64,000 nucleotides of DNA from a virus. The position numbers and the translations under genes are program-made. Each line of letters begins with the position of its first letter. The stretch's first letter is position 1. The DNA lies in IMG/VR virus record IMGVR_UViG_3300048930_000242, positions 64,001-128,000 of that record. One strand, 5' to 3'. The notes below the pieces were generated by a model. That model did no database searches and was not told where the DNA came from. It was given only the letters and a program-made list of their open reading frames with translations. This document shows, in pieces, positions 52,173-63,830 of the stretch.

Positions 52173-52259
52173 TGGCGGAAAGCAGAGGTCCCGATCCCCA
52201 GCCCTTTCGGACCCATTCGCTTTCGAGGCGATGCCGACTCCCTGGTCGGTTTACTTTCC
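52173..52259 (-). tRNA. tRNA-Ser(CGA), 8/4 fold
   Basis: GGAAAGTA/TGCTTTCC-G-CCA, long V arm. Confidence 0.9.
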
Positions 52260-53075: not shown

Positions 53076-53120
53076 ATTCTAACACAACGGAGAGGCCTTG
53101 TCCAGCACTGAATTGTAAAC
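53076..53120 (-). promoter_or_regulatory. Early promoter copy (consensus)
   Basis: GTTTACAATTCAGTGC-TGGACA-N17-TAGAAT. Confidence 0.85.
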
Positions 53121-54332: not shown

Positions 54333-54421
54333 TGGCGGAAGCAGGACGTCTCGATCGCCATACCCTTTCAGGTACCCAACGCTTTCCAGGCGTGGCCGAC
54401 TCCCCGGTCGGTTCAGCTTCC
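54333..54421 (-). tRNA. tRNA-Ser(GGA), 8/4 fold
   Basis: GGAAGCTG/CTGCTTCC-G-CCA, GGCG-ATCGAGA-CGTC. Confidence 0.88.
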
Positions 54422-56004: not shown

Positions 56005-56380
56005 TTGCACCGTATCGGCGGTGCCACCCGGATAGACTTGGTCAGCCAACGTCTATCAGATCAGCCTCAAGCAGCCATAGCTACCGGAGCAAAGTACTCG
56101 TCATTTGCGGTTACTTTAGGTTTGGACTCTTTAGGACGGACTTGCCGACTTAAGCAAGCTACCCGATCCACGCGAGCTACCATCTCGGATCGCCAACAGG
56201 TTAGTATGACATCAGTCGAAGCCAGGGCAGGCCCATCAAAAGCTCTTTAGGTGGCTCCGGGTCTTGATACGGAGCACTTACATCCCCTTTCGTACCTAAA
56301 GGGCTTATGGTGGACCTGGCGGGAATCGAACCCGCGTGTTGCTGCCTTTTCGCTGTCAGTTTACGATCATTCAAGCCCTA
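56005..56380 (-). ncRNA. ssrA: Two-piece (circularly permuted) tmRNA
   Basis: Acceptor piece ends CAGGTCC-A-CCA at 56308; coding piece starts GGGCCTG at 56234 (G3:U70); tag ANDEYFAPVAMAA at 56108-56067; outer ends approximate. Confidence 0.92.
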
Positions 56381-58610: not shown

Positions 58611-58700
58611 TGGCGGATGGCACAGGTATCGATCCCGATGGCTCTGTGGCCACGTATGGGTTAGCAACCCACCCTGACAACCCCGGTCAGTTTACCATCC
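58611..58700 (-). tRNA. tRNA-Ser(GCT), 8/4 fold
   Basis: GGATGGTA/TGCCATCC-G-CCA. Confidence 0.9.
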
Positions 58701-59097: not shown

Positions 59098-59185
59098 TGG
59101 CGGAAAGCCGAGGTCTCGATCCCCAGTCCTCTCGGACCGATTCGCTTTCAAGGCGGTCCCGGCGCGCCTGTCCGGTTGACTTTCC
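59098..59185 (-). tRNA. tRNA-Ser(TGA), 8/4 fold
   Basis: GGAAAGTC/GGCTTTCC-G-CCA. Confidence 0.9.
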
Positions 59186-59889: not shown

Positions 59890-59964
59890 TGGTGTGACCG
59901 ATGGGAATCGAACCCATATCGGAGCATTCACAGTGCTCCACTCTGGCCATTGAGCTACGGCCAC
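59890..59964 (-). tRNA. tRNA-His(GTG) with A73
   Basis: GAGCA-CTGTGAA-TGCTC; no G-1:C73. Confidence 0.92.
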
Positions 59965-60623: not shown

Positions 60624-60703
60624 TGGCGCGCCTGGCAGGATTCGAACCCGCGTGTATCCAGCTAACCTTTCAAGGAGTTAGAAGCTCCAGGGTATACAGG
60701 CGC
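60624..60703 (-). tRNA. Rearranged tRNA-Arg(TCT)-like RNA
   Basis: Normal acceptor, T arm and CCA; anticodon arm directly after the acceptor; D-loop motif AGCTGGATA after it. Confidence 0.8.
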
Positions 60704-60914: not shown

Positions 60915-60959
60915 ATTCTAACACCTTTCGATGCGCTTGTCCAGCACTGAATTGTAAAC
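60915..60959 (-). promoter_or_regulatory. Early promoter copy
   Basis: GTTTACAATTCAGTGC-TGGACA-N17-TAGAAT. Confidence 0.85.
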
Positions 60960-60961
60960 TT

Positions 60962-61055
60962 TGGTACTCCTATCAGGACTCGAACCTGAACTGACCGCTA
61001 ATCTGGCGGAAATCGGGTTTATAAGGCCCGCCGTGCTACCTTACACTATAGGAGC
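60962..61055 (-). tRNA. tRNA-Ile(TAT) with long variable arm
   Basis: CTTATAA loop; V arm CCGC-CAGATTA-GCGG; CCA. Confidence 0.85.
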
Positions 61056-61059
61056 AAAG

Positions 61060-61137
61060 TGGTACCACGAGTGGGAATCGAACCCGACCTGATCTGTCTT
61101 GTAAGGACAGTGTTCTCACCAGAAAAGCGATCGTGGC
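61060..61137 (-). tRNA. tRNA-Val(TAC)
   Basis: CTGTC-CTTACAA-GACAG, CCA. Confidence 0.85.
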
Positions 61138-61145
61138 ATTGAATT

Positions 61146-61216
61146 TGGCGGAAGCTATCGATGCGGGCTGCGCAACCCGATCCTCCCTTGCAAGAAAGAT
61201 CTACACCGTAACCTCC
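61146..61216 (-). ncRNA. CCA-ending non-cloverleaf RNA
   Basis: GGAGGTTA/TAGCTTCC-G-CCA, a second helix and two hairpins. Confidence 0.7.
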
Positions 61217-61228
61217 ATTGAACTTGTT

Positions 61229-61360
61229 GCTTAGTAGTTCATGCCTGATGGTGCAGACGCCATCACATTGTGATCTAGCCCCTGAACCAAACCTTTCGGC
61301 TACTCGCTTGACGCTTTGCCCATCGATATGATGAGGTTCTACGTACATGAGCTACTAAGC
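61229..61360 (-). ncRNA. Unassigned ~130-nt RNA with a 15-bp terminal stem
   Basis: GCTTAGTAGCTCATG ... CATGAACTACTAAGC. Confidence 0.6.
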
Positions 61361-61364
61361 ATTC

Positions 61365-61441
61365 TGGTACCCTTAGTCGGATTCGAACCGACATCCACCG
61401 GATTTTAAGTCCAGCCGCGCTGCCAGTTAGCGTACAAGGGC
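61365..61441 (-). tRNA. tRNA-Leu(TAA), short V arm
   Basis: CTTAAAA loop, CCA. Confidence 0.9.
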
Positions 61442-61726
61442 AAATCTTATTTCTTGATGATCATCTGGGCCAAGTCCTCAAGGCTATTGGCCGAGAACTT
61501 AGCTACTCCTTGGTCTCCATCCATCAACACGTCAATGGTAAACCCGTGCTGCCCTTTCTTGACACCGATGATAGTCGCTCTAGTGTTGCCTCGACGATCC
61601 CGAGTGTTCTTGAACCTAATGATCTTTCCGATCAGGTCGCTCTCGTCCATTATCATCTCTGTTAGTTAGATGGCTATCTAAGAACCCTCTCGTGCCCTCT
61701 AAGGCAGAGGAGAAGGCCATGTTGAT

Positions 61727-61895: not shown

Positions 61896-61986
61896 TGGTG
61901 GGACGAGTGGGATTTGAACCCACGATGAGGATTTCTCCTGTCGGATTAAAAGTCCGATGTCTTCGACCAGACTTGACGACCGTCCC
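61896..61986 (-). tRNA. tRNA-Lys(TTT) with long variable arm
   Basis: TCGGA-CTTTTAA-TCCGA; V arm AGGA-GAAA-TCCT. Confidence 0.88.
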
Positions 61987-62428: not shown

Positions 62429-62504
62429 TGGCAGCGAAGGTTGGTTTCGATCCAACTGCAATACTTTCAGAGAGTATCGGCTCAGCCACTTGCTCTTCTT
62501 CGCT
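62429..62504 (-). tRNA. tRNA-Gln(CTG)
   Basis: ATACT-CTCTGAA-AGTAT; A54 T loop; CCA. Confidence 0.85.
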
Positions 62505-62681: not shown

Positions 62682-62772
62682 TGGTGCGCGCAGATGGACT
62701 CGAACCACCACAGACTTATTTGGATGCGGCTGCTTTACAGGCAGCGGAGCTCAACCAGTGCTCAGTACGCGC
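62682..62772 (-). tRNA. tRNA-Tyr(GTA)
   Basis: GCTGC-CTGTAAA-GCAGC, long V region. Confidence 0.9.
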
Positions 62773-62882: not shown

Positions 62883-62926
62883 ATTCTACCACCAAACCAT
62901 CTGCTTGTACAGCTTTGAAGTGTAAC
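62883..62926 (-). promoter_or_regulatory. Early promoter copy driving the tRNA array
   Basis: TGTACA-N17-TAGAAT. Confidence 0.75.
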
Positions 62927-62928
62927 AA

Positions 62929-63830
62929 GGTAGCCTGAGAATACGGCTTCCGGTGGTTGCCTTTCGGAGCATTATCACCATGTTGCGACACGGCGTTCTC
63001 TCCTTATCCACCTCCAGCAAGGAGGTATCAACCGTAGCGGCCTTTTTAGACTGGTGGCGTTTCCAGTGTCGTCATGTTCTATTCCAGGCCTTGTCTACCG
63101 CCTACCTTGCGACGAGCAGTACGGGCTGCTACACCCTACGTGCGACTCTTCCTGAACAACCTTTGACTTTGCGATTCTTAGGTTGACTTGATTCACCCGA
63201 AGGTGTCAAGTATTACGCTACTTTCAAACATGACCGGCAACGACTTTGCGTTTTAGTTGATGTGGGATTTGAACCGCACGCCAATTCCTTTAGATGGAAT
63301 TGCTCTACCAATGAGCTAATCGTAACCTCCTGAAGACGAGCGTTGCCGTGACTTCATGGACTTTTGGTCCACAAAATACCACCCGCCTAGTATCCTTTCG
63401 ACCGCTAAGTCTAGTCAGATCAGTTGTACCTTCTCGGCTCTTGCGAAGCCGAAACCTTACAACCTGGTGAACCGCTCTTGGCCGCTAAACCTCGAACTTT
63501 GATCACCTTCATGTTCAGCTTTGCTACTCGGTCTGTTTCGCTATGATATGCGAGTGCGAATCGCCAGGAGTCTTTCTACCAGTTGGCCTTGGACTCTTTT
63601 CTCATCAAACCTTCGCGGCTATCTCCGTCACCGAAGAGGCGCTTGTGGCGCCAGCGTTGCATGATTGTTTAGATGGACCTTTCGGCGGTGGTCGGGGAGG
63701 CCTTCCACCTTTCTGCACCTTGCGGTACAACATCCTTTCATCTTTTCACTTTCGATCAAGATGTGCTAAACCAGACGGATTTCTCCGTTTCGTCCTTTTT
63801 GAAGGGAGGACTCTTCAGTAGTTCCCTTTG
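62929..63830 (-). ncRNA. Large (~900 nt) structured RNA, GOLLD-like
   Basis: ORF-free, dense GNRA/UUCG hairpins, inside a phage tRNA array, embedded tRNA-like element; family inferred from size and context only. Confidence 0.65.

Follow-up and report, generated by a model that had tools for sequence, protein, structure and literature searches.

Phage tRNA arrays are usually read as aids to codon usage or as spares against anticodon nucleases. Non-decoding RNAs with a tRNA-like shape are exemplified by the MHV68 vtRNAs and mascRNA, which are processed by tRNA enzymes and end in CCA, and rnaC of phage T4 combines a closing stem with a T-arm-like hairpin. In the part of PMC5389517 that cites it, tRNA-Other of Bacillus cereus is described as aminoacylated but taking no part in ordinary translation. 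The armless mitochondrial tRNAs of Enoplea nematodes are credited, where PMC7609411 cites them, to Juhling et al. (2012, 2018). The (8/4) tRNA-Ser genes occur in alphaproteobacterial phages, and some allo-tRNAs are thought to be non-translational, as we propose below for the element described here (Mukai et al., NAR 2017, PMC5389517). Serine identity has the variable arm as its main determinant, with contributions from acceptor pairs and G73, and the anticodon is irrelevant; G1-C72 and G2-C71 are conserved in bacterial tRNA-Ser, and E. coli SerRS has been reported to recognize the tertiary structure of tRNA-Ser (PMC9976931).

The window that we analyzed, a stretch of 64,000 nucleotides, comprises bases 64001-128000 of an IMG/VR virus record that is 153,340 bp long and carries direct terminal repeats. 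It comes from an uncultivated phage of about 153 kb, the host of which is probably an alphaproteobacterium. Neither IMG/VR nor the cultured phages yielded a close relative, and topoisomerase II identity reached about 35% at best. Near one end of the window lies a 71-nt element with an acceptor-type helix and an encoded CCA. We give about an even chance to the reading that it is a functional gene for a non-decoding tRNA-like small RNA, most likely descended from an 8/4-type tRNA-Ser, which acts through its acceptor end and a side hairpin.

Structure and setting of the element

The element is present in a single copy in the genome, at 61146..61216 on the minus strand (G1 at 61216, terminal A of the CCA at 61146), as delimited by its fold and by covariance-model matches. 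Folded alone with RNAfold, it forms 8 bp (GGAGGUUA/UAGCUUCC), a bulged A and 6 bp (CGGUGU/GCAUCG), and then, in order, one unpaired A, hairpin 1, hairpin 2 and G-CCA, at -32 kcal/mol (z = -3.3; equalled by 1 of 200 shuffles). The resulting long, acceptor-type helix pairs positions 1-14 (61203..61216, minus strand) with positions 53-67 (61150..61164, minus strand), the bulged A lying at 61158. Hairpin 1 (61179..61201, minus strand) takes the place of an anticodon arm and has either 10 bp and a GCA triloop or 8 bp and the 7-nt loop UUGCAAG. Hairpin 2 (61165..61178, minus strand) takes the place of a variable arm and reads GGGUU-GCGC-AGCCC, 5 bp with a GCGC loop; it includes the 6-nt palindrome UGCGCA and joins the 3' strand of the long helix directly on its 5' side, with no linker. 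The discriminator G and genome-encoded CCA occupy 61146..61149 (minus strand).

The initial annotation had proposed a CCA-ending 71-nt RNA with this fold, and the RNA is there, with hairpin 2 exactly as drawn. The helix that it gave as CGGTG/CATCG is also there, at 6 bp, one pair longer than noted, and hairpin 1 exists with its loop shifted by one position from the proposed GCAA. The same annotation had claimed that D and T arms are absent, and this is borne out: ARAGORN in standard mode made no tRNA call on the element or on either of its two homologues, Rfam 15 gave no family on 61146-61216 at gathering scores or at E up to 10, and a 1-kb search with the filters set permissively gave no match of the tRNA model RF00005 to the element, again up to E = 10. 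Both flanking tRNAs were called by the same ARAGORN and Rfam searches. The lack of a call on the element thus argues that it is not a cloverleaf and has neither a D arm nor a T arm or T loop. A closed stem followed by CCA is not in itself beyond chance, as a scan for acceptor-plus-CCA structures found 7-bp closing stems with N-CCA to be common in the window, many of them inside coding DNA; it is conservation that takes the element beyond chance.

The element belongs to an RNA island in the last 12 kb of the window (minus strand), where ARAGORN found 27 tRNAs and a permuted tmRNA and Rfam added a GOLLD RNA; nearly all of the island tRNA genes encode their CCA. The GOLLD RNA (62932-63389, minus strand, 200 bits) has a tRNA-like segment embedded at 63259-63321, and the circularly permuted tmRNA (56067-56368, minus strand, 88 bits) carries the tag ANDEYFAPVAMAA. 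Long variable arms are normally a mark of Leu, Ser and Tyr tRNAs, unlike here, where a 94-nt tRNA-Ile(UAU) (60962-61055, minus strand) and a 91-nt tRNA-Lys(UUU) (61896-61986, minus strand) have them; tRNA-Lys of 88-90 nt is annotated also in Caulobacter phage BL57 and Rhodobacter phage RcXuper. The tRNA-His (59890-59964, minus strand) has A73 and no encoded G-1, the base upstream being T, a trait described by Mukai et al. for a group of alphaproteobacteria and their phages (PMC5389517). Two CCA-ended genes went uncalled by ARAGORN, namely a 91-nt long-arm tRNA with a CUGUAAA loop (Tyr, GUA; 62682-62772, minus strand) and a 76-nt cloverleaf-like RNA with the loop CUCUGAA (62429-62504, minus strand). 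A CCA-ended RNA of 80 nt (60624-60703, minus strand) scores 29.2 bits against the Rfam tRNA model; its T arm is good and its anticodon loop has UCU, with only 4 nt in place of the D arm and a long insert 3' of the anticodon arm.

Homologues and covariation

Related contigs were reached via neighboring proteins. L049, an 84.6-kb NCBI assembly contig present also in a Logan run, is syntenic with the island of the window at a DNA identity of 70-80%, and L054 stands for several contigs from Logan and ENA. The element alone served to build a covariance model, which gave one match in L049 (E = 6e-10), and a two-sequence model gave one in L054 (E = 2e-19), so that the homologue search suggested in the initial annotation yielded two diverged relatives. 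Each of them folds alone into the same three-way junction (z = -4.0 and -6.0). The alignment of the three lineages (A6) was fitted to the model; its 28 pairs, 84 cells in total, are standard throughout, in agreement with RNAalifold. Eight pairs change on both sides: four in the long helix, where 13 pairs are kept in all three homologues, three in hairpin 1, where 10 of 10 are kept, and one in hairpin 2 (G-C to U-A). Pair 3:70, for instance, goes from A-U to G-C with compensation, alongside several more compensated pairs per helix. When partners were slid by 1-3 columns as a control, pairing was 37-56% with 0-1 two-sided changes. Since all pairs are kept and eight are compensated, we regard the structure as selected and not as that of a pseudogene. 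In two JGI samples, contigs of this phage were found with an element identical to that of the window, which adds no information.

Invariant in the three lineages are G1-C72, G2-C71, G5-C68 and G73-CCA, the lone A between the long helix and hairpin 1, the GCGC loop of hairpin 2 with its closing pairs, and the loop frame Y-U-N-N-A-A-G of hairpin 1, all of these positions being weakly established because only three lineages are known. The irregularity in the long helix shifts, from a bulged A after pair 8 in the window to a 1x2 internal loop between pair 5 and a run of 8 bp in L049 and L054, and what is kept is the total length of about 14 layers. The Ser-like 8-bp acceptor of the initial annotation therefore holds for this genome, but its length of 8 bp is specific to it and not conserved in the homologues.

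Two side observations concern L049. The 80-nt RNA at 60624-60703 has a 95% identical counterpart there (L049:7487-7566), and a tRNA with the anticodon UUA (L049:5297-5368) is labelled by ARAGORN as of the ochre-suppressor type. The tRNAs of this related phage are interspersed with several HNH, GIY-YIG and NUMOD3 homing-endonuclease genes.

The family is new and narrow, consisting of three lineages. Degenerate patterns of the conserved core found nothing in IMG/VR or in GTDB genome contigs, and a looser pattern in IMG/VR gave at least 118 matches; of the 80 loci screened with model R2, none proved real. When the element was compared by blastn with 50,697 phage records, no match was returned. 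No relatives were found via a 207-aa neighbor protein, and a profile search of IMG/VR with an alpha/beta-hydrolase neighbor gave nothing. The element is absent from 29 loci and 20 whole records of topoisomerase II relatives (~33% identity), and also from five cultured alphaproteobacterial phages with 8/4 tRNA-Ser (75-89% identity), in which the candidate matches were due to chance, folding no better than shuffles. Single matches elsewhere were likewise attributed to chance: one in IMG/VR to an exact 19-mer of the element (L002), judged by alignment and a tRNA scan, and one in JGI metagenome contigs to a degenerate pattern (L053), in GC-rich coding DNA. An 84-aa neighbor family was dropped as a lead, as it is widespread and the two long contigs fetched were unrelated phages without tRNA islands.

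Serine-type features

The acceptor-plus-CCA scan found four 8/4-type tRNA-Ser genes on the minus strand, with anticodons CGA (52173-52259), GGA (54333-54421), GCU (58611-58700) and UGA (59098-59185). All four combine a long variable arm with an 8-bp acceptor and a 4-bp T stem, and neither ARAGORN nor Rfam at gathering scores detected them. As a set they serve all six serine codons. The tRNA-Ser(UGA) has close unannotated homologues in phages of Caulobacter, Ruegeria, Phaeobacter, Rhodobacter and Mesorhizobium, and this suggests an alphaproteobacterial host.

A GGA start combined with G73 is found in this genome only in the four tRNA-Ser genes and the element, upholding the likeness to the phage's 8/4 Ser tRNAs that had been pointed out in the initial annotation from the acceptor and G73; G1-G2 with G73, disregarding the third base, occurs also in the tRNA-Asp of this phage. 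The 3' strand of the element, GCUUCC-G-CCA, matches that of tRNA-Ser(GGA) at all ten bases, and similarity to the tRNA-Ser genes is weak beyond the two ends. The loop frame of hairpin 1 resembles the C-U-N-G-A-A-A loops of the phage's UCN-reading tRNA-Ser, which fits descent of the element from a tRNA-Ser gene, and going by its letters hairpin 1 still looks like a vestigial anticodon loop. By the criteria of PMC9976931, the element has the SerRS-substrate sequence features G1-C72, G2-C71 and G73, all of them invariant.

It is possible, if rather unlikely, that the element is instead a structured RNA whose partner is unrelated to serine, that is, a scaffold for a protein of the phage or the host, or an RNA pairing with itself via UGCGCA, with the tRNA-like end serving maturation and stability only. 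The loop and closing pairs of hairpin 2 would suit such a role, being invariant and palindromic while the other helices covary, but with three sequences the invariance of 8-12 nt is weak evidence. A basic small beta-barrel protein of 66-69 aa has the same narrow distribution and is encoded within ~1 kb of the element in all three lineages; its proximity says little, however, because the whole island is syntenic, and it has no significant structural match (best Foldseek E = 0.13) and no Pfam family. A serine-unrelated partner would also leave the invariant G73-CCA, with its compensated acceptor pairs, unexplained. The gene for the protein (61447-61656, minus strand) lies inside the tRNA operon, and its product has the invariant motif KNTRDRRGNT (P0005-P0008); four clusters only were found among 5.8 billion proteins, all in this phage clade. 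For the 69-aa form, a small beta-barrel is predicted (pLDDT 81); its matches are Tudor/KOW/SH3-like (best E = 0.13) and too weak for us to draw a function from them.

Processing signals and transcription

The flanks of the element are those of a tRNA gene. Its 5' leader GTTCAAT (61217..61223, minus strand), with U at -1, is identical in the three lineages, and TTCAAT stands immediately 5' of six true island tRNAs as well. A U at -1 is favorable for bacterial RNase P. The 3' spacer AATTCAAT (61138..61145, minus strand) doubles as the leader of the downstream tRNA-Val(UAC) (61060..61137, minus strand; ARAGORN and Rfam), 8 nt from the element, and the trailer, CCA and a short spacer, is like that of the neighboring tRNAs. 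Upstream, in the same transcription unit, is a tRNA-Leu(UAA) called by ARAGORN and Rfam (61365..61441, minus strand).

Between the two, directly upstream of the element, lies a 132-nt structure (61229-61361, minus strand) with a 10-bp closing stem (z = -4.5). Upstream of the L049 element is an HNH endonuclease gene, and upstream of the L054 element are a tRNA-Gly and a 90-nt RNA (L054:2996-3085), which shares the 5' start UGCU-N-AGUAG with the 132-nt structure and has its A-CCA end at the same place. The idea that the element is the 3' domain of a larger RNA with the 132-nt structure was rejected, since that structure is missing upstream in L049 and only partly alike in L054. As its immediate neighbors differ among the lineages, we take the element to be a self-contained, autonomous module.

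A sigma-70-like promoter at 62883..62911 (minus strand), with TGTACA, a 17-nt spacer and TG before the second hexamer TAGAAT (an extended -10), probably drives the unit that holds the element, judging from its sequence. The next sigma-70-like promoter (60915-60943, minus strand) comes after tRNA-Ile(UAU), and no terminator-like sites were found on the minus strand from the promoter-proximal tRNA-Pro to the element, which is thus probably part of a polycistronic tRNA precursor of ~2 kb. About seven copies of the promoter-like motif (TGGACA or TGTACA, 17-nt spacer, TG, TAGAAT), set in a conserved block of ~30-80 nt, occur on the minus strand of the island, including those near 53100, 55600, 56750 and 58990, and the motif is shared with L049.

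A leader and trailer the same as those of tRNAs would also be in line with a processing or stability module, in which a helix like the top half of a tRNA recruits RNase P and 3' trimming enzymes, or protects its neighbors, and the released RNA has no job of its own. In L049, where the element directly follows the HNH gene, a cut there would part the mRNA from the tRNAs. We nevertheless consider such a module unlikely: in all three lineages a true tRNA with its own RNase P site follows the CCA of the element within 3-9 nt, which would make an extra cut site redundant, and two more hairpins with compensated pairs and an invariant GCGC loop, needless for a cut site, have been kept.

The hairpin in the anticodon position

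The middle triplet of the hairpin 1 loop is GCA, ACA and AAA in the three lineages, the would-be positions 32/38 form C-G, C-G and U-G pairs, and each of the three sequences, at its minimum-energy fold, has the loop closed to a triloop. The variable triplet and the closable loop argue that no anticodon is conserved, in line with the initial annotation, which had denied the RNA an anticodon. Its description as a non-decoding mimic has gained support in so far as the RNA is tRNA-like, does not decode, is under selection and combines serine-type acceptor features with an encoded CCA and a leader of the tRNA type.

Conversely, an extremely reduced decoding tRNA, akin to the armless mitochondrial ones, which would read UGY or UUU codons and possibly insert serine, is most improbable. 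The loop of hairpin 1 can be drawn as 7 nt with Y32, U33, A36 and A37, and allo-tRNAs with serine identity and non-serine anticodons exist (PMC5389517). The metazoan-mitochondrial mode of ARAGORN does make calls on the element at relaxed thresholds, but its three calls on the homologues are inconsistent in boundaries and identities, and at default settings this mode makes a single, internal call in L054 and none for the other two. The would-be anticodon, moreover, differs from lineage to lineage, pairs 32/38 close the loop, the Rfam tRNA model does not match, and a normal tRNA-Cys is present in both phages whose islands were read over ~17-20 kb. Armless tRNAs are not known to be used by bacterial ribosomes or EF-Tu.

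Finally, a decaying tRNA-Ser pseudogene or a functionless chance fold, with which the narrow family and the tRNA-Ser-like ends would be compatible, appears very unlikely from the alignment, as 84 of 84 cells are standard and eight pairs compensated between flanks that are only 70-80% identical, the leader and CCA are conserved, and the element was kept while its neighbors were rearranged.

Discussion

From its conserved structure and tRNA-like context, we infer how the element may mature, what it may bind and what it may do. It would be transcribed within the ~2-kb polycistronic tRNA unit, and the context suggests that RNase P would cut after U-1 of the shared TTCAAT leader and that the 3' spacer would be trimmed back to the encoded G73-CCA. 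The mature RNA, predicted at 71-74 nt, would be a three-way junction with a ~14-layer helix and a serine-type end, a closed 10-bp hairpin in place of the anticodon limb and a short, invariant GCGC hairpin in place of the serine variable arm. Because it has neither D and T loops nor a conserved anticodon, it would not be expected to work on the ribosome. It may instead act via its acceptor end and variable-arm-like hairpin, which are the features used by anticodon-blind readers of tRNA-Ser.

Two such readers are candidates. One is the host SerRS, which would charge the element with serine. One point against SerRS is that it reads the variable arm largely by shape, whereas hairpin 2 is short, at 5 bp, and has a conserved sequence; such conservation would be better explained by a partner that recognizes sequence, or by a tertiary or dimer contact. 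Lacking the D/T elbow, the element may also fail to present the tertiary shape that SerRS is said to read. The other candidate is an enzyme attacking the CCA end of tRNA-Ser, such as the MenT3/AbiEii-type nucleotidyltransferase toxins, for which the element would be a decoy that spares tRNA-Ser. A decoy for a CCA-end toxin would need just what the element keeps and could lose what it lost. No FemAB, class II synthetase core, Pth, Pth2 or CCA-adding enzyme was found in the phage genome as a partner for an amino-acid donor role, so that gene content lends that role no support.

The most specific version of the proposal, that the element is a dedicated tRNA-Ser decoy charged by host SerRS and/or soaking up a CCA-end toxin of the MenT3/AbiEii type, seems to us improbable. 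If it were true, the element would be the first RNA counter-defence against attack on the acceptor end rather than against anticodon cleavage, and the 8/4 tRNA-Ser set of the phage would be the replacement arm of the same strategy. More generally, selection here keeps the acceptor end, the CCA and the side hairpin and drops the elbow and the anticodon, a pattern that points to a tRNA-related function off the ribosome, be it charging, sequestration of a synthetase or toxin, or amino-acid donation. As a naturally occurring minimal substrate, the element could also serve to find out which parts of tRNA-Ser are required by SerRS, RNase P, EF-Tu and toxins that modify the CCA end. Furthermore, annotation understates the content of such phages, because standard tRNA finders miss both the element and the whole serine tRNA set.

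How does the element relate to what has been described? As in canonical tRNAs (RF00005; ARAGORN), an acceptor helix is followed by a discriminator and CCA, invariant in three lineages, but there is no cloverleaf and no 7-nt loop with an anticodon conserved among orthologues. With the (8/4) tRNA-Ser and allo-tRNAs (Mukai et al., NAR 2017, PMC5389517) the element shares a GG-start acceptor and G73-CCA as well as, in this genome only, a first helix of 8 bp; it sits in the same array as four genuine 8/4 tRNA-Ser, and the hairpin that it has where their variable arm would stand is a possible counterpart of that arm. Unlike them, it lacks a D arm, a T arm or T loop and a conserved anticodon and goes undetected by tRNA models and ARAGORN, and none of the homologues has an 8-bp acceptor with a 4-bp T stem (a 12-bp branch) and a T loop. 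The armless mitochondrial tRNAs of Enoplea have likewise lost both the D and T arms and kept an acceptor helix and an anticodon-type hairpin, but they decode with a conserved anticodon, whereas the element has a variable triplet, an extra hairpin and a home in a bacterial virus. The MHV68 vtRNAs, mascRNA and tRNA-Other keep a cloverleaf and T arm, in contrast to the elbowless three-way junction found here, which differs from them further in its encoded CCA, host range and serine-type end.

The nearest analogues are the species 1 and 2 RNAs of phage T4 (rnaC and rnaD), which are likewise small stable RNAs other than tRNAs, encoded inside a phage tRNA cluster and transcribed together with it. 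The element is no homologue of theirs: model R2, run on the T4 tRNA region with filters off, gave a best E of 1.9. The T4 RNAs also differ in being 119-139 nt long, in having a CCA that is not genome-encoded and, in rnaC, in keeping a canonical T arm. Among the known virus-encoded tRNA-like RNAs, the element is thus a new and narrow variant.
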